This document shows positions 2,116-59,855 of a stretch of 64,000 nucleotides of DNA, one piece after another; the first letter of the stretch is position 1, and each line of letters starts with the position of its first letter. Source of the stretch: Lama guanicoe (Eukaryota); the NCBI GenBank assembly GCA_013239625.1, contig MU053810.1, positions 4,186,071 through 4,250,070 of the forward strand. The letters are read 5' to 3'. A program made the position numbers and the translations under genes. The notes below the pieces were generated by a model, which was not told the DNA's origin, did no database searches, and saw only the letters and a list, made by a program, of their open reading frames with translations.

Positions 2116-3910
2116 GAAATAGTCATATTATGTGGAAATAAGGAAATATATAATATATAAATATGTAAATGCCAGGTTAAACAGCTGGAAGGTTCAAAAG
2201 CATTTGCCTCTAGGACAGAAGGATGGCGGTTTGTGGAGAGATGGGCCAGTGTCATGGTTTTCTTGTTTTAAAGTTTGCAGTAGTATTTAACCTGCTCACC
2301 TGTGTGTGTCACTTGATAAAATTAATTTAAAAATTAAAAACAGTGTTTACTTGTATTTTGTAACAATGTACAGTAGATAATCATGAAATAGCTAAATCCT
2401 GGTGAAAAACTGAGTAAACTTTAGAATATTGAGGGTGATTTCAAGAAATCTCTTTGTGGAAATGAGTTTTGAGCTGGATTTCAAGGTTAAGCTGACTAGA
2501 TTAATGAAGTGAATTGGGGATGAGGGAGCAACAGAATGCGGTGAGACAGGCAGAGGGGCTGGGCTGAAGTCCCAGGGCATCATGGGAAAGAACTTCCCCA
2601 AGATGCATGTAGAGATAACAGGAATCCAAAAATTGGTTACTTCCTCTCCATTTTGTTTCTCACCTGCTCTAAACACTTCCTTTGCTTTCAATTTTCTATT
2701 TGGTTAAATGAAAAAGATACTGGAATCTCACAGCTGCATCTTGCAACTACTATAAGAATACTCTGCTCTGGGATAGGAAAACTCCTCCTAAATTTTGTAG
2801 GTAAAAATTCAATGTAAGTAGAATAACTTCTTTAAGCCTAGGATTATTTCACCAACATTCACAGATCACCCAAATGGAAATGGCTCATGTTCTCTAAGGG
2901 ATTAAAAAAAAAACTGCATCTAGTTTTTGCTTAGAAAATTAAAATGAAAAAGTATGACTCCTACTGACACCTTTTTAACTTATTGAAGACCCTAAGAATA
3001 TTTTTGGATTCAGGGCATTAATAATAGCTTCTATGCACCCAATTTTGTACAGGCTTTTGTCATCTTTAAGTTCTATTTTCTAGGCCCATTAAAAAATCAT
3101 TTTTAGAAAGAAATATGTGAGAACTTCATAAAACATCTGGGAAATTAGCCAGTTTCCCTAAGAGAATGCCCTTGAAAAGTCAGATGGAACTTCCAGAGTG
3201 ACTCTGGGAATTCCAAATCGCCATCATCCCATCCTGACCACTCTGCCCCTAAAGTGCAACAGCTCAGGAAATTGGAAGGTGGGTTAGAGCTTCCTGTTCC
3301 CAGGATTATTTTAATTAGAGCTGCCACCTTTCACCTGACTGGCTCTGACAAACCCCATGCGTTGCACAGCGTGTGAGTGAAATAATAGGTAAGGAGTTAT
3401 CATCCGCTGGACTCAGGGTTACTGTTATAAATAACATCTTTTATTCCTTTTTTTAAAAAACCTGTGATGAACTGACATTGCCTTCCCCACCGGTGTCCGC
3501 CCCTCCTTTCCACTGCATATAACAGTATAAGTAAGTACATAACCCGTGTTCTTGGTTCCCTAAACCAATTCAACCTAGCAAATGTCATTAAAAAATGTTC
3601 TCTGAGTATGTTTACCTTCAGTATAAATAAGTTGTTAAAAATTTCTGGAAACACGTCTCTTATTTAGGAACCAGGCAATGTGCCTTCTGAGACAGTAAAA
3701 GAAATTAGCATAAACCCACCTGTTCAGAATTTCAAAGAAAGCAACCCTAATGCCTAAAGCACATGCAGTGGGGGTGCTTCTAATACATTTTTGAAATTTT
3801 GCTTTTCCACTAAATCAGGCACAGAAGGTTTCCTGTATTTTACTTTCTTTTATTATTCTTGTTTCTATTCAGTTTTCTTACCTTTTATGCTTTAAAAACA
3901 TCTTGCTGTT

Positions 3911-3955
3911 GCAACCCAAGTGTCCATGAACAGATGAAGGGATAAATAAAATAGG

Positions 3956-3986
<31 letters not shown>

Positions 3987-4370
3987 CAATAGAAATTACT
4001 CACTTTTTAAAAGAAGGGAGTTCTGATACATGCTACAACACGAATAAAGCATGAACCTAGAGGGCACTGTGTTAGGTGAAAGATGCCAGTTACCGAAAAA
4101 GCAAATACTGTATGATTCCACTTATATGAGGTAAAGTAGTCAGATTCATATGGATAGAAGTAGAATGGTGGTTGCCAGGGGCTGGAGGGTAAAAGGAATG
4201 GAGAATTAGTGTTTAATGGGCACTGAGATTCTGAGGGGAAAGGTGAACATTTCTGCAGATGGATGGTGGTCGTGGTTGTACAACCATGTGAAAGTACTTA
4301 ATGCCATGGAACTGTGCACTTAAAAATGGTTAAAATAGTAAATTTTATGTGTATTTTACCACAGTTAAGA
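3911..4370 (+). mobile_element. Old L1 3' fragment
   Basis: 'gcaacccaagtgtccatgaacagatgaagggataaa', 'aaatactgtatgattccacttatatgagg', 'actgtgcacttaaaaatggttaaaatagtaaattttatgt'. Contains a (GT)n run near 3955-3985. Confidence 0.8.
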
Positions 4371-16047: not shown

Positions 16048-18182
<2,135 letters not shown>

Positions 18183-21100
18183 CAGAAATCTTAGATCTTA
18201 AACTCATACTTTCACTTTCAACTCCGCCTTTCCAACCTAATTATTCTAACCCTCCTTGTCTCACTGACAAACATTTTTCCCTGCAAGACCCAGCTCCCAA
18301 GTGCCCTCATCTGTAAATTCTCCCCTAATTACTGCTCACTCTTCCTTCCTCCCTGGTCCCCTCGGAGTGAACCCCTCCCCGATGTCTCCTGTACACTGGT
18401 AGTGACTGGCCCTACTGGTTGTCCTCTCTGCTGAGCTGTGAGAGCCCAGAGAGGGGTGGACGGGTCATTAGTCTTCAATCTGCAGGGTACCATGCGGGGC
18501 TTGGTGTTGGCTAAAGCAAAAAAAAAAAAAAAAAAGAATGATTAACACAGGGTTAAGGCAAGGTGTGTGTACTGAGGACAATCAGGTCAAAAAAAGAGAC
18601 AGAAATGGGGGAAGTTGCCCAGAAGGACCCCCAAAAGAAAAGAATCTCACCCTTAATGAATCTTCTCTGTTCTAAAAGGAAACCAGGTGACTATTCACAG
18701 TGGCCTTCCTGCTGCCCCAGTAAGGGATCTCTTTAGACTGAAAACTTACTAGAACTCCCAGTTTCACCTGTTCTGACCAGGAACCTTCCCCGCGTTTTCC
18801 CAGATGGTCTCACAGACAGACTCCCCCTCCTTTTTTCATTATGAACTTCTGCGGATCTTGTTGGATCCTGTGCTCATGACAGCCTTTACCAGGCACAATG
18901 GAGGCCCGGGGAGGCTGCTGCCTCCATATTGTCCCCCACCCCTCTCTTCCACCTTCATCCTTGATGTCCACAGGTCTCCAGGATAAAGTGTCCCTCCTCT
19001 TCTGACTCTGCCCTGCCAGCTTCTCTTTGGGGCCTTTTAATTTTGACTTTCAACTTGTGAAATTTCTAAATGCTCCTCTTTTTTTTTTTTTTTTCTCTCA
19101 CGTTTCCTTAATCCTGGGGCATCTTCTGAGAGAAGGAGTTGTTACATCCATTGTAACATTTCCTACAATGTATGTTGTTTTTTTGTGTGTTCGTGAGCCT
19201 TGCAGATTTTTTCCATTTGTGAGCCTCAATCAGTGGATTTAATAGCTACATTAAGAGGAAAGATAAAATCAAAGGAAAGGGAATTTTAAAATACCATTGC
19301 CAAGTGATTTAAAACCACCAAATTATCAAAACAATAATTAAATATAAACTGCATTTCATCCTCATTGTACAAACACACAGGCAAATCACAGGCTGTGTAG
19401 CCATTGGGACTGGTCCTCTTGATCTGGAGATCTGCAGCTGTACCCCCTCCGTAGCTCCACGCAGATCCTTCTAGGCCCAGCTGCCTCCGGCTGTGGCCCA
19501 GTTTCTTTCCTGAGCTGCAGAGCAAACGAAACAAAAAGTTTGGAAATGAAGATAGCTTAGATCCTGGGAGCTGACTAGGAGAAATTAAAATCTTGATGAA
19601 ATCCTAGGAACCCAAAGGGGAAAAAAAATGTAAATATCTGTGGCTGTTCGTAACCACCGGTCTTTTGCCATGAGCCAGGGAATTAAGACTCCTGGTTTAG
19701 TCTCTGAAATTCTTTCCCAGTGGCCATATCATCTCATCCAAGCCTCTTCATCTCTGTCACCTTCAGTGATCCTAAAGTCCCCGAGAGCACTGAAAGTCAA
19801 TTCTTCTGTGATCCCGTTGGTGAGAGTGTGCAGAATGTGCAATTTGGAGATGAACTTGGATGATCTTTTCTCCCCAGCGGCCTCGAGCGAGAAGTGAAGC
19901 ACTTATAACTGTTATGAATACGAAGCAACAGCCAATGAGGAAGGAAACAGAGGAGAAACGGAAAATCATCAGCCTAGACGGAGAAGATTTAATAGGTTGT
20001 TGTGGGACTAGCAATACCAGCGCGCAAAGATTGAAAGGTTGGGAGTCAGAACAAGAAGTCCGGCCATGCGGTGTGTCTCCAAGAGCCTCGTGGACTGGTT
20101 GTGAGCTGATGGCGACAGGGGCCCCAGTTCACCTCAAGTAACCATCTGTGTCTTGTGATGTTCACCGTGAGGAGCTGGTACATTGTCACGCTGATACTTC
20201 AGTTCACCTTCTAATCTCTCACACACATAATATCTTTGTCTAGCATGTGACTCTCACGTCCGCCTTAAAGTATAAGGTTAAAAAAAATAGAAAGCTATAG
20301 GGAAATAAACAGGAGTTGACGTGGATTCATATTTTGAAAAATAATACTGGGGATGCTTAAGATGCATTTGATGGATAAATATATGGTGCTGTTAGTGTTT
20401 CTTTTTGAAAGGACTGCTATCAGTTTTCGGATTATCATTGTTTAATTTGGGGGAACATTTTTTCTATTTTTTTTTATTGTGGCAAAATACACATAATATA
20501 AAATTTGCTATCTTAATGGTTTTCAAGGTTACCGTTCACTGGCATTAAGTATGTTCGTATTGTTATGCAACCATCCTCCCCATCCATCTCCATAATGTTT
20601 TTCATCTTGTGAAACTAAAACTCTGTAACCATTGAACAGTAACTCCCCATGCCTTCCTCCCCCCAGTGCCTGGCAACCACCACTCTACTTCCTGTCTGAG
20701 ATTCTAACTGCTCTAAGTATCTCATATAAGTGGAATCACACAATATTTGTCTTTTTGTTTTAAACTGGCTCATTCCACTAAGTATAATGTCCTAAAGTTC
20801 ATCCATGCTGTAGCATATGGCAGAAGATCCTTCTCTTTTTAAGGCTGAATAGAATTCCATTGCATGTATATACACATTTTGTTTATTCTTTCATCCATCA
20901 GTGGACACTTGAGTTGCTCCCGTATTTTAGCTACTGTGAATAATGCAGCTATGAATATGGGTGTACAAATGTCTCTTCAAGACTCTGCTTTCAGTTCTTT
21001 GGTATATATCCAGAAGTGGGGTTGTTGGATCACAATCATATGGTAATACAATTTTAAACAGAATTATTTAATAATGCACAAGGATTCCAATTTCTACACA

Positions 21101-21570
21101 TCCATTCCAAAACTTGTTTTTTCTAAATAACAGCCTTCCTAATGAGTGTCAAGTGTTATCTTGCTATAGTTTTGATTTGCATTTCCCTAGTAATTAGTAA
21201 TCTTGAACATCTTTTTATGTAATCATGCCCAATGTATATCTTCTTTGGAGAAATGTCTTTTCAAATTCTTTGACCATTTTTTAATTAGGCTGCTTGTTGT
21301 TTTTGTTGTTGAATTTTAGGAGTTCTTTATATATTCTGGATATTAATTTCTTATTAGATATGCAATTTGGAAATACTTTGTCCCATTCTGTGGGTTGCCT
21401 TTTTGTTCTGTTGATAAAGATTTTTCCATTTTCATGAAGTCCAATTTTTAATTTTTTCTTTTGTTGCCTGTGTCTTTGGTATCCTATGTAAAAAACTCAG
21501 GGTTGTGAAGATTTTTGTTTTGTGTTTTCTTCTAAGAGTTTTATTTGTTTGTTTGCTTAAATAGTTTTGG

Positions 21571-23680
<2,110 letters not shown>

Positions 23681-52030: not shown

Positions 52031-52540
52031 GCCTTGTAGAGCCTCAAAGGGAAGTTTAGACTTTGTCATCAGAGTTTTGCTTAAGATAATGCAAGGTATG
52101 TTTGTGACAGTGTTTCACAAACTGTGAAGCACAACACAGGTGTGAGCTATTGCTCTTGCCATTACTGTGTATTTCTACCATTTTCAGTCAATTTCCTCCC
52201 ATTTTCCTCTGATTTTTTTGGACATTACAGAGCAGCCTGGGTAGAAAGGATAAAGAAGGCAAAAGATTTCTGCTGCCACAGGATTATTAAGCGATAGAGG
52301 GGCCTGGCCCGCTCCCTCCCTCCCGCCGGCAGGGCTTCAGGGGGCCAGAGGCTCTGCGGGGTGGGGGAGAGGACAGGAGGGAAGGAGAAGGGAGGGGGAC
52401 CCCCGAGTCGCCCCCTCTCACTTTGCAGGCTGATTCCTCACTAGAGAGTGGGAAGGGCAGCAGCAGCAGAGAATCCAAACCCCAAAGCTGGTATCACAAA
52501 GTACCATTTCTCCACGTTGGGGGCTCGGAGGGGACCCATC

Positions 52541-53980
52541 ATGAGCGATGTTACCATTGTGAAAGAAGCTTGGGTTCAGAAGAGGGGAAAATACATAAAA
52601 ACCTGGAGGCCAAGGTATTTCCTTTTGAAGACAGATGGCTCATTCATAGGCTATAAAGAGAAACCCCAACGTGGGAATTTACCTGATCCCCTCAACAACT
52701 TTTCAGTGGCGAAATGCCAGTTAATGAAAACAGAACGACCAAAACCAAACACATTTATTATCAGATTTCTCCGGGGAACCACTGTTACAGAGAGAACATT
52801 TCATGTAGATACTCCAGAGGAAAGGGAAGAATGGGCAGAAGCTATTCAGGCTGTAGCAGACAGACTTCAGAGGCAAGAAGAAGAGAGAGTGAGTTGTAGT
52901 CCAACTTCACAAACTGATAATACAGGGGAGGAAGAGATGGGTGCTTCTGCAACTCACCATAAAAGAAAGACAATGAGTGATTTTGACTATTTGAAACTGC
53001 TAGGTAAAGGCACTTTTGGGAGAGTTATTTTGGTTCTAGAGAAGGCAAGTGGGAAATACTATGCTATGAAGATTCTGAAGAAAGAATTTATAATTGCCAA
53101 GGATCAAGTGGCACAAACTTTAACTGAAAGCAGAGTATTAAAGGACATTAGACATCCCTTTTTAACATCCTTGAAATACTCCTTCCAGACAAAAGACCGT
53201 TTGTGTTTTGTGATGGAGTATCTTAGTGGGGGAGACCTGTTTTTCCATTTGTCGAGAGACCGGGTGTTCTCTGAGGACCACACACATTTCTATGGTGCAG
53301 AAACTCTCTCTGCCTTTGACTATCTACATTCCAGAAAGATTGTGCACCGTGATCTCAAGTTGGAGAATTTGATGCTGGATAAAGATGGCCACATAAAAAT
53401 TACAGATTTTGGATTTTGCAAAGAAGGGATCACAGATGCAGCCACCATGAATACAATCTGTGGTACACCAGAATACATGGCACCAGAGGTGTTAAAAGAT
53501 AATGACTATGGCCGAGCCGTGGATTGGTGGGGCCTTGGGGTTGTTATGTATGAAATGATGTGTGGGGAGGTGCCTTTCTACAACGAGGATCATGGGAAAC
53601 TTTTTGACCTAATTGTAATGGAAGACGTTAAATTTCCTCAAACACTCTCTTCAGATGCAAAATCATTGCTTTCAGGGCTCTTGATAAAGGATCCAAATAA
53701 ACGCCTTGGTGGAGGACCAGATGATGGAAAAGAAATTATGAGACACAGTTTCTTTTCTGGAGTAAACTGGCAAGATGTATATGATAAAAAGCTGGTACCT
53801 CCTTTTAAACCTCAAGTAACATCAGAGGCAGACACCAGATATTTTGATGAAGAATTTACAGCCCAGAATATTACAATAACACCACCTGAAAAATATGATG
53901 AGGACGGCATGGACTGCACGGACAGTGAGAGACAGCCGCAATTCCCTCATTTTTCCTACTCTGCAAGTGGCCCTGAATAG
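52541..53980 (+). CDS. AKT3: Intact 479-aa AKT3-like (PKB-gamma) Ser/Thr kinase retrogene
   Basis: ATG 52541 to TAG 53980 is 1440 nt, the same length as AKT3. PH domain, GKGTFG, K177, E196, [12 protein letters not shown]305, APE, turn motif T447 and hydrophobic motif FPHFS472Y are all present. Expression cannot be shown from sequence. Confidence 0.85.
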
Positions 53981-56770
53981 GTCTCTTACATCTGCTACTT
54001 CACCGTCATCGTAGAGTTATTACTGAAAATGATTCCTGGACATCACACCAGTCCCAGCTCTTACAGATAGCAGGAGCACCTTCAGACGCCCCAGATCAGT
54101 CCATGGTCTTCACCCCTCGCTTCCTTTCACTCACACGAGAACAAACATATACGCAAACACTCTCGACTTTTTGTTTTTGCGTGAAATTGTATCTCAGCCT
54201 AAGGACTCATGCTGTTGCTGCTACTGTCTTACTATTACAGCAACTTTAAGAGGTAATCTTACAGTCTCTGGAAGTCATGAGACCTCCGTTCATTTGTGCA
54301 CCAACTGTCATCTTCTGATCTTTTCAGCTTTTGTTTCTCCCTGACAGTGAAGGCTACATGAGATACACTGCTTCTAGGTACATTTTCTAACTTTCTAGAA
54401 GAGAAATCAAAAACTAATTAGACTAAGAAGATTTGGTTTATAATACAGAACAAGCAGTTGAAGTGTGGTCATGTGCATATGCAAAATTTTAATAAAGCAG
54501 ATCAGATCAGTGCATAAAGTAGGTATGTAGCACTGAGATCCGGCTGGAATTCATTAGGAGGCATTTGAGAGGACTGAGCAACGGTTAAGACAGAGATATA
54601 CATACATAAACTTAAATTCCTGTTGGATACCGCAGAGGAAGCCTGCTGTTCCACGCGGACGTCCAGATTCCATGGGCAGTTGTTGGCAAAGGAACACTTT
54701 CTACCAAGGAAGGAAGCATATGCACAGCAGAGTCAAGGTCACTTAAAGGGTCTGTGATACGATTTGCACCAGAGAGTATGTTCGCACCCGTGCTTGGAAA
54801 CCTTTTTCCCTTCTTGCTACTGTCACCTCTGATGGCTGAAGAATGTGGACTGGTGTTACGATCCTGCTTTTCACCAAAAGTTGTACACCAAGGTAAACAG
54901 GCGTTTGCCTTACTTGTTTTAATTTTTTTATTTTCAGTTCTATGTGAATTAGCTTTTTCTCAAATATTAAAACTTTGGCTGTTAGTTTATGATTTTGTTT
55001 ATATTGTGGTAGTATGTATTTTTTAGTGATAAGAATTGTATGTCATGTTAGCAAATGCAGCTCCAATTTACATAAAATAGACTTACTGCAGTTTATTTTG
55101 ACCCGTGTGCAAGGAATGTACCTGCCGATGAGAACCATGCACTTTTTCTCCTATATAAACAAACTTGACGAGGCTCTGAAATTGTACATACAGGTTAGAG
55201 TTTGACTTTGGGAGAAGAGATGCTGTCATTTAACCCCTTGGTGCTAAAAATGAGAAATCCCCAACTCTCCATGCCAAGGGGTTGAAACCAGTGAGTGTCA
55301 ATGTTTGCTCTTCTGAGAATGGAAGTGTGCTGACGGCCTAGCTGTATACTGTAATGAAGCAAATTGAGACCTGGATGATAAAAAATGAACTTTACTTGGC
55401 AAAATGAACACATCTCGAGTAGTTAACGAAGTGGGCAGTTAAAAGATAAAGACCTAGTGTGTTTATTCTGATCATGGTACATTTATCACTGAATTAAACC
55501 ATAAGGGAAAAAACAAGACAAGAAAGTAGACTAGATCTGTCCTGTAAGTTGCCTTGTATCCATTGTATAAAAAGGAAACATGAGAGAAAGAGAGGACAGC
55601 TGAGCTGGGCTGGTGTTCAAAGCATTCATTTCTTTAGAGGGAAAGTATGACACCATACAGTAAGCACACTGAGAGTTTGGGCTTTTTTTCCCAAATCTTA
55701 AGGTGATTTCCATGACCTTGGCCAAGGACACTTCCTAAAGACTCAAGGTAGCGTTGACCGTGCCCCAGGCTGGCTGCTCTGCACAGCCAGCTTCCCGTCC
55801 CCAGCCAGTGCCCGGGGCTCAGTCCTGAGATTCCATGAGTGTCACACAGGTGTTTTCTTGGCTTCAATCTTGAGAATTCCTTACTTTCACTCCCTGACCT
55901 CAGTCAGCTGGCGTAGAAAAACAGAAATGTGTTTAGACGAAGATTCTGAAGCTTTCCTTGTGTCTGCCCTTAGCTGAAGTTTGGGATTCTGGCAGATGGA
56001 AAGGCCTGAACCGGGAGCCACTCTCTTTGAGTACAGAGTTCCGGCTCTGCGGACTCCATCCTGTACCGAGTCTGCCCTTTGCCATGATGCAGCCATCTTG
56101 GAGGAAATGGGCCATTCCTGCTGGGATTTTCAGCAGGGCTGCTCACAGCTTTGCTTTCCACACTGACTACATAGCATTGTTCCGGTGTTTTCCATTTCCC
56201 ATTTCCATTTTCTGGCTTCTTAAAGCTGACCAGTTCTTGCAGCCGCCACTTGCCTCTCTTCGAGTCCAGAGTAAGGCCCCCCCGCTAACCGCAGGGTCTC
56301 TGCATCACACCTCAGTGTACACACTTTGCTGCTACTGTTTGTACTGTCCACAGTACAATGTCCTTACCTTGCTCCTGGTAGTGCATTACACGCAAGCATG
56401 AAAAGTAAAGGCTTTATTTCAATAAAAAGAAAACTTCTAAATTGGTAATTGAATTACCTCCCTGTAGCTTTATAGTTTGTGACATTTCTTGACCTTGCTA
56501 GTTCTTTCATTAGATCCACGCAAGATCTAGTCATCTGGTTAAGGAGTTTAAGCACATGCAACTATGAACCCAAGAAACTGTATTACTATTACTGTTGGTC
56601 ATACTAAAACTGTTTATTTCCTTAAGTATATGACCCACAAGGATGTGAAATAACTACAAGAAACTGTTTTTGTACACTGTGCATCCTTAGTATTTTTACA
56701 TGTATATGATAAGGATGCACATTATTTTCCTTCGTACAGACAGCTTAAGTAAAGCACTCTGTCAATCTGC

Positions 56771-56776
56771 AAAAAA

Positions 56777-56823
<47 letters not shown>

Positions 56824-56825
56824 AA
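56771..56825 (+). repeat. (TAAA)n microsatellite derived from the AKT3 retrocopy poly(A) tail
   Basis: A6 followed by about 12 TAAA units directly after the mRNA 3' end. Confidence 0.9.
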
Positions 56826-59156
56826 GAGAGATGGGGGAAAAAGACTGCCCTTAGCATATTCTTCTAAAGAATTAGGATCTACTAATTAATTTCTGATTTT
56901 CTGAGGGAATCCAAGAAACTTCCTCCAGAATTTTTATTGGACTTATTAAGATTCACTCTTGTACTCAAGGCCTCTGGGCTTGTGTATGAAATTGAAATGT
57001 TCTGTTAAAGGAAACCTAGTAGCTTCCATTCTGCACTTAAGTGGAAAAGCCTGAGGACCACTCTTTTTGGAATGTCAGATTTAAAGTATAGAAAAGGGTT
57101 TATATTCAAAGAGGCGGAAAACAAGCTAGAGTTCTATTAGACTAAGAATTAAGAATATATTAGCCCTACAAGAAATGCCTTTCTAAGAGATAAACAAGAT
57201 TAATTTTCAAGTGATTTCTGTGCCTGTATAATATTTTCCTGGGAGCAATTTTGTTTGCTTTAAAAACGATCACCACCAGCTGTCTTAGAAATCCCGTGAT
57301 GGCTCTTTCATCTGGTTACAACCCACCAATCCCCCTTCCCTCCCAGGCCTCTTATATTTTCACAACAATAGAAGATCAAAATTCATTTAAACAGGATGGA
57401 AAACACCCATAAAACAGAGCAAACAGTGTAATAGGAAACAAGACATATACCCATTTTGTACGGATTTGTTGCTCCGCTTAGGTATCAAATGACTTTATTC
57501 CTCAGTGGATTTGATGTGTTTCATAAAACCACATAACTGACAATAGGCTTAAGTAACAACTGAGGGAAGCGGGGTCCAGGGGAAAACATGGGTGACAAAG
57601 TTAGAAAGCTCGGGGTAGGTTTAATGCAGTGAAAATGCGTACCACCTGGTCCGTGTCCTTGCTGGAGGCGGACCTCGGCTGGATGGTACCCACCTTCTCA
57701 GTGGCCAGGGCATTCATCCCACAGTGCCCGGGCTCTCTAAGACGGTGCTGCTAATGAGCTCCTCACCCGAGCAGCTTCCCTGATTCTTGTCTGCAGAGAG
57801 ACTTCTTCCAGGGGACTTCATAGGGAGAATACTGTGATGATGGGAGGGGCTGGGAGAGAAGTCCTGGGCACCACGTGCCTCTTGCATCATCTCTCAGTGA
57901 AGGCCAGTGGTATAAAACTAAGGCCTAATTCAAAAAAAAAAGCTAAGTCCAAAAAACATGGTCCAAATCAAACTTTCTGGTGGTCTGACTCCATCTAAGA
58001 GTTTTACTGAGAATATCCAGAGCAGCATTCCGGAATCTTTTGGGGGTGATAGACCTATTTAATAAGAATAATAATGGCAAATATAAACGGAGCACCTGCC
58101 GTGGACAGGCACCATTCAGAGTGCTTCACTCGCTACCTGAGATGATCTTGTTTACTCTGTGTGGTAAACCCCAGGCATAGGTACTGTTATTAGCCACTGT
58201 TACAGGGTGGAACCTTGAGGCCCCCAAGATAAGTAACTCACCCAAGGGCACACACTTGCGGACCTAGGTATAACTCGCACTTGCGGTCTGAGTTCAGTCT
58301 GCTCTTAACCATTGTACACGACTTCCCAGGCCAAGCCCTATGATAACCTGCTGAAAAGCATTAAGCTGTCTCTCCAGAAAAATACACACGTGGACGTAAA
58401 GACAAAAGTCTGCATCTTTGCGGTGTTCTGATGTTCCCTGAGCATCTTCCAAATAGATTAAAGAGCCCCTGCTTGTGAACGCTGAATGATGGAATGTGAT
58501 TTCGGACCTTCTTGGAAATAGTTCTCTCATCAGGGCTTTGTGGGACTGGAGGGCAGAGAGCTGAGGGCCCTGGTTGATGGCAGCAGTGGGGCTTTAGAAG
58601 TGCTCAGCTGCAGATTAAGAAAGGTCCATGAGTTTTTACAGTCGGGTATGATGTGGGTCAGGCGGGAGTCCTCTCATGAAAGCTGAAGAAGGTCACTGAG
58701 TGGGGTGGTCCTTTTGCTGCACAAGCAGAGAAGTTGGCCAGGGAACCCCTGCAGAAGACTGCTCAGGACTGTCCCAACACATGGATGAAGGACTGATTAA
58801 GGCGCCAAAGGTTTTTGCCTACAATATCATTTTAGCTGGGAAAGACTGTGCTAGCAGTACAATGCGGACCATACGAAAATTTTAATAAAACAGCCACAGT
58901 GTACAGTGTATCTTCCTTTGAAATGATGTGGTTTGCTGGCACCCTCCCTAGATGAACTCTCTGCAGATTGTGCCCCCAGGTGTCTGATTGACTTGACCCG
59001 TTGCACAGAATTAGAGCATCGAGGAATTTAAAGGTTGGAGGACCTCTGACAATGATGGTGGGTTTTGATTTGAGAATAGTTGACCTAACACTATTCTTTC
59101 TACTGTTGTCAGCTGTCTTTTGAAGCAATTATCTCCTGACATTAAAACCAGGAACA

Positions 59157-59297
59157 GGGGGAAGGTGTAGCTCAGTGGTATAGCACATGCTTAGCATTCA
59201 TGAGGTTCTGGGTTCAACCCCTAGTATCTTCTCTAAAAAATTAATAAATAAACCTAATTACCACCACCCCCCTCAAAAAAAAAAAAAGAAAGAAAAC
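59157..59297 (+). mobile_element. tRNA-derived SINE (Vic-1-like)
   Basis: 'ggtgtagctcagtggtatagcacatgcttagcat...ggttcaaccc...aataaataaacctaattacc' plus A tail. Confidence 0.88.
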
Positions 59298-59855
59298 AAA
59301 CACAAGAACAGAGGAGAAACACACCTTTATTCTTAGCCATGCCAGGGAAGTCAACCAAAGGCAGTGTGAAATCACTGGTCTACCCCCTGAAATGAGACTC
59401 CTGACATTGACCCTTCAAGTGGTTTAGGAGGCAGATTCTGCATAAGCGTAAGTAACCATAATGTGATGTTGAGCTCATAGAGTTTTGCAGAAATAATCAT
59501 GGTTGTTATAGCTGATGATCTGACAATCCTCTTCTAAGACCTTTGCGTGGATACTTGGATTTATTCTGCACACCCCGTGAGGTTGTTACTATTGTTACCA
59601 CCCTTATTGTACCGATAAAGGAACTGAAGCCCTTTCCACAAAGTGGGCAAGCATATCATGCCAGTCAAATGTTTTTACAAGGTGATTGAAGGTTCTTTTC
59701 CATGTGGGAAAACTGGACTACCGTTGGCTCAGTGACCTAGAAAGGCAGACTATCAGGGGGAAAAATTATAAGCTTTAGAAGGGACCTTTGATGGAACAGT
59801 GGACTTATACTTTGGAGTAACAAATCATAGCCATCATTAAAGAATGAGATGGACT

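Follow-up and report, generated by a model that had tools for sequence, protein, structure and literature searches.

AKT3 ranks with the most highly conserved proteins of vertebrates, and an intron-less AKT3 reading frame with 59 residue changes in the genome of Lama guanicoe raises the question of whether such a frame is a decaying relic or the template of a kinase with loosened regulation. A preliminary description of the 64,000-nucleotide stretch in which it lies (the window) singled out four changes within codons 76-83, three of them in four codons, and took their density in an otherwise invariant loop as a sign of directed loss of autoinhibition. The analysis below addresses the origin of the copy, the order in which its changes arose, and how far those changes depart from what mutation alone would produce.

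A processed copy of AKT3

The parent AKT3 gene of the same genome was rebuilt from 13 coding exons with GT/AG borders (G000:C8876), and comparison with it shows that the 24 bases at 52766-52789 are part of a processed, that is, reverse-transcribed and intron-less, copy. The copy is colinear with the spliced parent mRNA, both untranslated regions (UTRs) included, and is followed by the remnant of a poly(A) tail (Table 1). Projected onto the copy, the parental exon borders fall at 52586, 52712, 52824, 52969, 53101, 53167, 53236, 53359, 53488, 53703, 53791 and 53894, and the junctions are exact.

Copy and parent coding sequences (CDS) differ at 76 of 1440 bases (94.7% identity), with no stops and no insertions or deletions (indels); the resulting 59 residue changes agree exactly with the number given in the preliminary description. 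In the 3'UTR, 128 mismatches occur among 2784 aligned bases (4.6%; 95.4% identity) together with 11 indels, one of which is a 653-base segment found in the parent only. At the other end, positions 52423-52590 are 94.6% identical to parental segment L001 by blastn, and the splice-acceptor-like bases that directly precede the ATG-bearing exon in the parent are absent from the copy. The region 52279-52540 has a GC content of 0.63 and a CpG observed/expected ratio of 0.35, and no second match to window positions 52150-52440 was found in the assembly. Because this GC-rich 5' stretch is without another match there, the first exon of the parent may be absent from the assembly. No sign of the parent's CpG-island promoter was seen at the copy, nor does any CpG island lie within about 30 kb of it. 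A search of the flanks for a target-site duplication, with the 5' end imprecisely placed, returned best common words of 7-9 bases and no clear duplication.

Since the parent protein shows no difference from a Bos mutus AKT3 segment and only one from lizard and turtle AKT3, all 59 changes are assigned to the copy's side. Among sequencing runs matching the stretch were 14 of DNA and one of unrecorded kind (share 0.76-0.85). Six RNA runs had small shares of 0.20, 0.20, 0.20, 0.06, 0.06 and 0.06, which are not evidence of expression of the copy; the share of 0.20 is explicable by parental AKT3 mRNA alone because 24% of the copy's 31-mers are also present in that mRNA.

Table 1. Features of the AKT3 copy, in window coordinates
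Feature	Position	Strand	Remarks
Presumed 5' end of retrocopy (non-coding first exon of AKT3)	52290..52422	+	Putative, by inference only; GC-rich, adjoins matching 5'UTR
5'UTR of retrocopy	52423..52540	+	Matches ATG-bearing exon of parent AKT3
Intron-less AKT3-derived reading frame (P0001), 479 codons and stop; PH, kinase, AGC tail	52541..53980	+	Colinear with 13 parent exons
E17K, codon 17, GAA to AAA	52589..52591	+	Equals human AKT1/2/3 hotspot allele (available text of PMC11876451, PMC4826202); also in Camelus
Changed cluster, codons 76-83: C76F (TGT>TTT), Q78R (CAG>CGG), W79G (TGG>GGA), I83T (ATA>ACA)	52766..52789	+	Read against rebuilt parent
N229S, codon 229, AAT to AGT	53225..53227	+	Equals human megalencephaly allele (available text of PMC11876451, Table 2); also in Camelus
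3'UTR of retrocopy	53981..56770	+	Aligns to last exon of parent (L014)
A-rich tail, now an (AAAT)n run; poly(A) remnant	56771..56826	+	Starts exactly where similarity to parent stops; read directly

The predicted product

Pfam places in P0001, all above cut-off and in the order typical of AKT/PKB, a PH domain (residues 7-105, 59.7 bits), a Pkinase domain (150-405, 258.6 bits) and a Pkinase_C domain (426-473, 38.4 bits), and its best relatives with a solved structure are AKT2 and AKT1 (E-values 1e-234 to 1e-223). Inspection by eye of the alignments to AKT1 and AKT2 shows that the copy has kept the beta-3 Lys, the alpha-C Glu, the catalytic-loop Arg-Asp, Lys and Asn, the DFG and APE motifs, the activation-loop Thr305, the turn-motif Thr and the hydrophobic-motif Ser472, as well as the lipid-binding residues K14, R23, R25 and R85. 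The roles named for the catalytic and phospho-regulatory residues are those general among kinases. Changes near catalytic or regulatory residues comprise Y269H, L292F, K304N, F306I and Q470H. The signature of autoinhibition and of the allosteric pocket in vertebrate AKT (E17, C77, Q79 and W80 in AKT1) has been lost through E17K, C76F, Q78R and W79G; the copy is an AKT3 derivative by descent that no longer carries the vertebrate regulatory signature.

A cluster assembled in steps

Codons 76-83 read TTT CTC CGG GGA ACC ACT GTT ACA (F L R G T T V T), as previously described, where the parent reads C-L-Q-W-T-T-V-I with TGT, CAG, TGG and ATA at codons 76, 78, 79 and 83. The equivalence of the first three changed positions to AKT1 C77, Q79 and W80 likewise holds in HMMER alignments to AKT1 chains. 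What does not hold is the argument from density. When 76 neutral substitutions were simulated with the frame left open (3000 runs per mutation spectrum), at least three changed residues fell within some 4-codon window in 77-81% of runs, and at least four within some 8-codon window in 71-76%, such that the cluster is at chance level; equally dense clusters lie elsewhere in the copy, at codons 43-47 and 460-467. The loop is indeed invariant among the vertebrate AKT sequences examined, but not among 30 invertebrate or other Akt proteins, in which Q78 is retained in 97%, W79 and I83 in 40% each, and C76 in only 3%.

The history of the cluster can be read from camels. RefSeq models named 'RAC-gamma serine/threonine-protein kinase-like' in Camelus dromedarius (XP_064335464.1), C. 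bactrianus (XP_045360998.1) and C. ferus (XP_032330052.1) evidently represent the same insertion. P0001 shares 95% identity with the Camelus proteins P0004 and P0122 (475 aa) as against 87-88% with true AKT3, and the models have 45 identical derived residues in common with P0001, E17K, C76F, N229S and R465Q among them, with a further five positions changed in both. Judged from these automatic predictions, which consist of proteins only, the copy was inserted in the camelid stem lineage, and its 479-codon frame, open here, is open also in the three Camelus species. The models differ from P0001 in having a four-residue gap at 119-122, possibly a device of gene modelling rather than an in-frame deletion, in carrying Ala at position 79 and retaining Q78 and I83, and in changes of their own (H88Q, Y174C, S210A, S371L). 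A search of the literature by title and abstract opening returned nothing concerning these models; the subject of PMC7256775, as far as its available text goes, is AKT3 proper. Similarly, a collection of 15 billion proteins yielded no protein model of the copy from a camelid other than Camelus, and as far as this protein search shows the copy is restricted to camelids.

The Camelus proteins have F L Q A T T V I at the eight codons in question. Thus C76F and the loss of W79 predate the camelid split, dated to about 16.3 Ma (PMC12337305), while Q78R and I83T arose later and in this lineage only. A single multi-base mutation, considered as an origin of the cluster, is ruled out because Camelus has only part of it. 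The earlier suggestion that TGG may have reached GGA by way of a TGA stop becomes moot with Ala in Camelus and Gly here; the shared first step, as far as proteins allow it to be reconstructed, was most simply TGG to GGG. A test for faster change at residues 76-88 following the split gave no significant result (4 of 18 changes, P = 0.10 after scan correction).

Disease positions, interface and inhibitor pocket

The preliminary description had proposed that the changes be examined for enrichment at catalogued activating positions and at the PH-kinase interface, and the two tests gave different answers. Of 18 published AKT3 disease positions, seven have changed in the copy where 2.2 are expected (hypergeometric P = 0.0032; simulation P = 0.0023), in a catalogue that was looked up after E17K and N229S had been noticed. 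Six of the seven changes were already in the stem (P = 0.0067), and most catalogued AKT3 variants are gain-of-function (PMC11876451). Exact disease alleles number two (E17K and N229S) versus 0.40 expected (P = 0.06); the other five matches differ from the disease residue (R for K, G for C, R for Q, F for D, Q for W), and one change, R465Q, is a CpG transition. L51, D320 and D322 are unchanged in the copy. At the interface, by contrast, no enrichment was found in the residue lists quoted in papers, whose figures and supplements may hold fuller ones: 3 of 25 (P = 0.62), 4 of 17 (P = 0.145) and, in their union, 6 of 34 (P = 0.23).

The biochemical premises of the preliminary description are supported in part. 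That C77F and Q79K activate has been established experimentally (PMC3702205), while the contribution of Q79 to the interface is described as negligible in the available text of PMC12724016. W80 had been said to anchor the PH-in conformation and the pocket for allosteric inhibitors. Regarding the pocket this stands, as mutants are activating and insensitive to MK-2206 (PMC9018718, PMC4826202) and Trp 80 stacks on the inhibitor (PMC2944833); as for an anchor, the available account of an inhibitor-free Akt1 structure places this residue without kinase contact (PMC8379990). W79, T203 (AKT1 Ser205) and G265 (in the AKT1 Glu267 turn) of AKT3 line the inhibitor pocket described in PMC2944833, and E319K, L313M and L359V fall at E322, L316 and L362 of published AKT1 interfaces. 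Most rare AKT variants are regarded as passengers (PMC4826202).

Possible signs of selection on the reading frame

By several broad measures the coding sequence looks unconstrained. Its divergence of 5.3% is close to the 4.6% of the 3'UTR, the three codon positions have changed evenly (25/28/23), and the 61 nonsynonymous and 15 synonymous differences (16.6-20.6 synonymous expected) correspond to a pairwise dN/dS of 1.07, which is not significantly below 0.5, the value against the parent by which retrogenes are recognised. The nonsynonymous rate of 0.059 compares with a pairwise UTR-plus-synonymous rate of 0.0455, such that omega comes to 1.30 (P = 0.055) for a parent that never changed and to 1.68 (P = 6.5e-4) where the parent is credited with 0.3 of the neutral rate; the differences behind these values, 15 synonymous and 128 in the UTR, are pairwise and unpolarised as to lineage. 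Sites invariant in 30 distant Akt proteins were changed nearly as often as chance predicts, both in the stem (12 of 50 changes, 13.5 expected) and overall (13 of 59, 15.9 expected), and include G10A, K161R, E189Q, H192Q, E232D, Y269H and L292F. These 30 proteins came from a metagenome scan (at most 65% identity for full-length matches, no mammalian AKT3) and serve the conservation test only.

Other measures point to constraint. The probability that 76 substitutions leave no stop is 0.02-0.06, and that of finding no indel in the CDS, given 11 in 2784 UTR bases, lies between 0.0034 and 0.058 according to the share assigned to the parent; these open-frame probabilities are inflated by ascertainment, open frames being what first readers flag. 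The 55 single-step replacements have a mean BLOSUM62 score of +0.24 as compared to the -0.27 to -0.35 that mutation by itself would give (P = 0.0097 and 0.0042). The 20 parental CpGs of the CDS show no C>T and seven G>A transitions (P = 0.008), against seven and four in the UTR, and the absent C>T changes are those that would turn Arg into stop, Cys or Trp. APOBEC- or ADAR-type editing, a candidate explanation for the sense-strand excess of G>A and A>G, was rejected as the UTR shows no such asymmetry, and because it is absent there, selection on codons is the better reading of the excess.

For changes that followed the camelid split, protein-only proxies point towards purifying selection. Only two of 13 single-lineage changes fall at sites at least 90% conserved in the 30 distant Akt proteins (6.1 expected, P = 0.019), and positions already changed were struck again more often than others (5 of 50 versus 13 of 429, P = 0.030). 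In total, 18 post-split changes compare with 23-114 expected, by a protein-only proxy based on literature dates and assumed mutation rates. Among the three Camelus proteins a single residue differs where 4.8-25.5 differences are expected neutrally (P(<=1) 0.048 or less), with split times taken from papers and mutation rates assumed to be 0.5-1.5e-9 per year. That the dromedary and Bactrian proteins are identical could be due to introgression, an event reported in both PMC6946651 and PMC12337305. About a dozen tests were run overall, of which several were null.

Competing explanations

That the copy is a neutrally decaying processed pseudogene, its frame open by luck and its cluster and E17K random, is a less likely explanation, though one of appreciable probability. 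The dN/dS near one and the even use of codon positions are the textbook appearance of a pseudogene, and the parity of CDS and UTR divergence, the near-chance change at invariant sites, the chance-level density of the cluster and the lack of a nearby promoter-like CpG island all accord with it. Genomes hold thousands of retrocopies, among which a few still open at 5% divergence are to be expected. Against this stand a number of independent coincidences that such an explanation would require: no stop, no indel and a frame that is open in Camelus as well; conservative replacements; not one of seven CpG transitions on the strand where they would yield stop, Cys or Trp; post-split changes that avoid conserved sites and revisit changed ones; near identity among three Camelus species; and changes at seven of 18 disease positions. 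A clear pseudogene of AKT2 origin in this genome, moreover, has the decayed, multi-frame look that the AKT3 copy lacks. A role as RNA, for instance in drawing off as a decoy the microRNAs directed at the AKT3 3'UTR, the frame then being incidental, is very improbable. Transcripts of pseudogenes acting as decoys are a known idea, and a 2.8 kb 3'UTR so similar to the parent's would suit it, but this UTR diverges as fast as the CDS and has gathered indels, and the signals of conservative replacement and codon-aware CpG asymmetry lie at the level of protein.

At the other extreme, positive selection may have acted specifically to abolish PH-kinase autoinhibition, giving a constitutively active AKT3 paralogue resistant to allosteric inhibitors with the 76-83 cluster at its core. 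The excess at mostly gain-of-function disease positions, nearly all of it in the stem, the identity of E17K, N229S and the equivalent of AKT1 C77F to activating alleles, the changes in the inhibitor pocket and at published interface residues, and an omega above one under any realistic parental contribution speak for this. We consider it unlikely nonetheless: the interface lists are unenriched, the cluster is of chance density and was assembled over two periods, most catalogue matches are unlike the disease alleles and one is a CpG transition, the structural weight of Q79 and W80 is reduced by the sources cited above, rare AKT variants are mostly passengers, and the catalogue was consulted with E17K and N229S already in view. 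Directed loss of autoinhibition, as proposed in the preliminary description, is thus one possible reading, and a gene that still codes but whose regulation is under relaxed constraint fits equally well.

Taken together, these considerations suggest that the copy is, or until recently was, most likely a putative protein-coding retrogene rather than a dead pseudogene, and we regard as probable the fuller account in which it is a fast-evolving coding retrogene whose putative product has weakened autoinhibition. After its birth a phase of very fast replacement, at some 50 positions and at or above the neutral rate, would have been followed by slower and more conservative change; the early steps would include C76F and the loss of W79 with E17K, N229S, K161R, V183F and R465Q, and the late steps, in this lineage only, Q78R and I83T. 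Experiments on human AKT lead one to expect that these changes weaken the clamp of the PH domain on the kinase and favour membrane binding, and the Trp on which allosteric inhibitors stack would be removed. An AKT3-like kinase with reduced autoinhibition is predicted because the clamp residues have changed and the catalytic, lipid-binding and phospho-acceptor residues checked have been kept. Whereas the anatomy of the copy, its shared origin, the stepwise order of its changes and their statistical patterns are observed, we infer from them selection on the protein, a biochemical effect and any expression; the loosening may have been selected for or merely tolerated.

Implications and comparison with known systems

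A bolder interpretation, which is improbable, can be offered tentatively: camelids may possess a family-specific extra AKT3 that was remodelled early by positive selection at residues whose mutation in humans causes megalencephaly and cancer (E17K, loss of W80, N229S and the equivalent of C77F), and that conservation has since maintained over more than 10 million years as a naturally fixed, weakly autoinhibited kinase, a germ-line 'oncogenic' AKT tolerated or exploited presumably by means of restricted expression. If expressed, a copy that combines 59 changes, among them several gain-of-function alleles known from humans, with a frame open in both camelid tribes would amount to a natural experiment on the extent to which a healthy animal can bear loosened AKT regulation, and would supply a ready panel of combinations that are tolerated in the allosteric drug pocket and at the clamp between PH domain and kinase; it might also bear on the peculiarities of insulin signalling in camelids, though this link is speculative. 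If silent, it would stand as a caution that drift in a retrocopy can by itself recreate several 'driver' alleles, and that a dense-looking cluster is a chance outcome at 12% replacement.

Among the closest known systems is the parent AKT3 itself, which has the same length of 479 codons and the same architecture of PH domain, kinase and AGC tail; the copy differs in lying on another contig, in having no introns, in the loss of C76 and W79 and in the gain of E17K. The AKT2-derived pseudogene (G000:C1924, L095) resembles the copy in being intron-less and in stemming from an AKT mRNA, but its match to AKT is spread over several frames with stops within one matched stretch, neither of which is seen in the AKT3 copy. 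Lastly, the human gain-of-function alleles (E17K, L52R, C77F, Q79K, W80 variants and D323H in AKT1/AKT3, and N229S, W79C, Q78K and R465W in AKT3) affect the same residues, and in the case of E17K, N229S and the C77F equivalent the substitutions are the same. The human alleles, however, occur singly, as somatic or de novo changes that cause tumours or brain overgrowth, whereas in the copy many are combined, fixed in the germ line throughout a family and carried by an extra copy of the gene.

Origin and Anatomy of the Copy

The intron-less AKT3-like sequence is a retrocopy of AKT3: a search of the assembly (~2.05 Gb) recovered 13 of 13 coding exons of the parent gene, with GT/AG borders, on a separate contig, and the exon joins are exact in the copy. 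Similarity to the parent gives way to an A-rich run; no convincing target-site duplication was found at the copy's flanks. Of 1440 coding bases, 76 (5.3%) separate the copy from its parent; indels and stops are absent. The rebuilt parent protein matches a Bos mutus AKT3 segment at every residue and departs from lizard and turtle AKT3 at just one, which places each of the 59 residue changes (the count given in the preliminary description) in the copy.

The GC-rich stretch upstream is presumed to be the parent's non-coding first exon. When 52150-52440 was compared with the whole assembly, no counterpart near parent AKT3 was found, and the parent's CpG-island exon is probably absent from the assembly. 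No CpG island lies within ~30 kb of the copy, and its 5'UTR-like part has a CpG o/e of 0.35. The CpG-rich patches elsewhere in the window may represent either a GC-rich repeat or the promoter or opening exon of a gene, and the repeated element downstream is probably a SINE. The 653-base segment of the parent is either an insertion after copying or marks a repeat-mediated deletion in the copy.

Positions of the copy and of neighboring or related features (window coordinates unless a contig or locus is named)
Feature	Position	Observation
CpG-rich patches	16095-18300; 21500-21800	sole ones in window, CpG o/e 0.6-1.0
Open frames	16095-18197	several, long, overlapping, both strands
GC-rich stretch	~52290-52422	directly upstream of parent-matching part; no second match in assembly
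Parent similarity	52423-56770	begins in 5'UTR, continues across 2.8 kb 3'UTR
Coding sequence	52541-53980 (+)	479 codons, uninterrupted frame
Residue cluster	52766-52789	TTT CTC CGG GGA ACC ACT GTT ACA = F L R G T T V T
Codon 256	53306-53308	V256L in copy and dromedary/Bactrian protein; parental Val in C. ferus
Codons 460, 462	53918-53926	M460T, N462S, as in dolphin and pilot-whale AKT3 models
Parent 3'UTR segment (L014)	opposite 55517	653 bases, absent from copy; flanked by 10-base direct repeat (GACAAAAAAG / GACAAGAAAG)
(AAAT)n run	after 56770	takes over where parent similarity stops
Repeated element	59149-59299	~150 bases, many genomic copies; 30 of 41 matches listed at 80-89% identity
AKT2-like copy	G000:C1924:17969-19311 (locus L095, ~2431-3999)	intron-less, N-terminus AKT2-like

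A Shared, Probable Camelid Retrogene

The best database match to the predicted product, P0001, is not AKT3 but a 475-residue predicted 'RAC-gamma serine/threonine-protein kinase-like' protein of Camelus (95% identity, vs 87-88% to true AKT3), the sequence of which is the same in C. dromedarius and C. bactrianus and differs by one residue in C. ferus. Camelus annotations already contain the copy as an automatic 'AKT3-like' model. The protein collection holds no model of it from any camelid outside Camelus, and no work on a camelid AKT3 retrogene was found among the titles and abstract openings listed in literature searches. The copy is probably a new, lineage-specific retrogene. As it is common to both camelid tribes, its insertion is older than their split, placed at ~16.3 Ma in PMC12337305.

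Comparison of copy, parent and Camelus protein (the Camelus side being known from protein alone) shows 45 changes to the same residue in both lineages, E17K, C76F, N229S and R465Q among them, and five positions (44, 79, 125, 189, 304) changed to different residues. Nine changes are confined to the Lama guanicoe copy (G10A, D46N, Q78R, I83T, I128T, N146S, E240D, E352G, Q470H) and four to Camelus (H88Q, Y174C, S210A, S371L), where the protein has an additional 4-residue gap. The pattern at codon 256 could stem from reversal, polymorphism, lineage sorting or introgression, while positions 460 and 462, variable in further mammals too, seem naturally free to vary.

The Residue Cluster

The cluster reported in the PH domain (C76F/Q78R/W79G/I83T) is real, with parental codons changed TGT>TTT, CAG>CGG, TGG>GGA and ATA>ACA. 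P0001 contains PH, protein-kinase and AGC C-terminal domains, and alignments to its closest solved relatives, AKT2 and AKT1 (E 1e-234 to 1e-223), set AKT1 C77, Q79, W80 and I84 opposite the four residues, confirming the claimed correspondence for the first three. The cluster is composite: W79 was lost and C76F gained before the tribes separated, and Q78R and I83T arose later in this lineage alone. At position 79, Gly here and Ala in the Camelus protein suggest TGG>GGG as an early step, which would make the passage through a TGA stop raised in the preliminary description unnecessary.

The proposed interpretation, directed loss of autoinhibition, is half right. Cluster density, taken as a special signal, is no more than chance: in neutral simulations of 76 substitutions (stop-free outcomes retained, 3000 runs per mutation spectrum), some 4-codon window held at least three changes in 77-81% of runs and some 8-codon window at least four in 71-76%, and clusters as dense occur at 43-47 and 460-467. 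As to location, enrichment depends on the residue list chosen, the catalogued disease positions being enriched and the interface lists not.

Changed positions of the copy against published residue lists (as excerpted from the cited papers)
List	Positions	Matches	Expected	P
Inhibitor-bound AKT1 simulation interface (PMC12724016)	25	3 (17, 79, 319)	3.1	0.62
Inhibitor-free Akt1 crystal interface (PMC8379990)	17	4 (17, 78, 313, 359)	2.1	0.145
Union of both interface lists	34	6	4.2	0.23
Human AKT3 disease variants (PMC11876451 Table 2)	18	7 (17, 78, 79, 161, 183, 229, 465)	2.2	0.0032

By simulation the disease-catalogue enrichment has P = 0.0023, for a catalogue consulted after E17K and N229S had been noticed. 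Six of its seven matches were already present in the stem, before the tribes split (P = 0.0067). Two exact disease alleles, E17K and N229S, occur vs 0.40 expected (P = 0.06), and C76F equals AKT1 C77F, described as activating in PMC3702205; at the other five matches the residue differs from the catalogued allele, and R465Q is a CpG transition.

Decay or Constraint

The early phase of the copy's evolution was fast. The nonsynonymous rate (0.059, 61 of ~1035 sites) is at least equal to the pairwise UTR plus synonymous rate (0.0455, 143 of ~3143 sites), to which changes in the parent itself also contribute; omega is 1.30 with the parent unchanged (P = 0.055), 1.68 with the parent at 0.3 of the neutral rate (P = 6.5e-4) and 1.94 at 0.5. 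After the split ~18 replacements accumulated in both lineages combined, vs 23-114 under drift if published split dates of 11-25 Ma and assumed mutation rates of 1-2.2e-9 are used, with Camelus represented by its proteins. The apparent pattern, an early burst followed by constraint, is frequent in young retrogenes.

That the copy is a neutral pseudogene, its frame open by luck, is a less likely account, although a pairwise dN/dS of 1.07, changes at codon positions 1/2/3 of 25/28/23, similar coding and UTR divergence (5.3% and 4.6%), and 13 changes, vs 15.9 by chance, at sites that never vary among 30 distant Akt sequences are all consistent with it. Against it, the probability of no stop is 0.02-0.06, and the coding sequence has no indels vs 11 in the UTR (P = 0.003-0.06). 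Replacements are conservative (mean BLOSUM62 +0.24 vs -0.27 to -0.35 from the mutation spectrum; P = 0.0097 and 0.0042). The 20 parental coding CpGs show no C>T vs seven G>A transitions (P = 0.008; UTR, seven C>T vs four G>A), and the missing C>T changes are those converting Arg codons to stop, Cys or Trp. Post-split changes spare conserved sites (2 of 13 vs 6.1 expected, P = 0.019) and favor already-changed positions (5/50 vs 13/429, P = 0.030).

A single residue also distinguishes the three Camelus proteins, vs 4.8-25.5 replacements expected under drift at assumed mutation rates of 0.5-1.5e-9 per site per year (P of at most one, 0.048 or less), an expectation whose underlying tree could be shortened by the reported gene flow between domestic camels. 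The dromedary-Bactrian split is dated to 4.4-8 Ma and 5.73 Ma in PMC12337305 and PMC6946651, respectively. Transitions are strand-asymmetric in the coding sequence (A>G 18 vs T>C 10; G>A 12 vs C>T 2) and not in the 3'UTR (A>G/T>C 15/22; G>A/C>T 21/22), which we read as codon-level selection; transcription-coupled mutation bias may also produce such asymmetry.

Predicted Biochemistry

By-eye reading against the AKT1/AKT2 alignments finds lipid-binding K14, R23, R25 and R85, the catalytic residues, activation-loop Thr305, the turn-motif Thr and Ser472 retained. Published work on human AKT bears on the cluster's counterparts: AKT1 C77F and Q79K bring the PH domain to the membrane without growth factor (PMC3702205), while W80 contributes ~-5.3 kcal/mol to PH-kinase association in simulations (PMC12724016) and W80 mutants are freed from autoinhibition and escape MK-2206 and Inhibitor VIII (PMC12724016, PMC9018718, PMC4826202, PMC2944833). 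PMC8379990 and PMC12724016 further describe E17K as increasing membrane affinity and disrupting the E17-R86 salt bridge that stabilizes a loop packed on the kinase domain. T203I and G265R alter the two other pocket elements named in PMC2944833 (Ser205, Glu267-Asn269 turn), and E319K, L313M and L359V correspond to the kinase-side interface residues AKT1 E322, L316 and L362. Extrapolating from human AKT, the product, if made, would be an AKT3-like kinase whose PH clamp is loosened and which does not respond to allosteric inhibitors.

Taken together, we lean toward a camelid retrogene encoding a rapidly evolving protein whose autoinhibition is weakened; that loosened autoinhibition was itself the selected trait seems, within that reading, doubtful. 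The second intron-less AKT copy in this genome, the AKT2-like one, is an ordinary dead processed pseudogene, its match to AKT protein scattered across several reading frames and with stops within one matched stretch; the AKT3 copy, in contrast, retains an uninterrupted frame.
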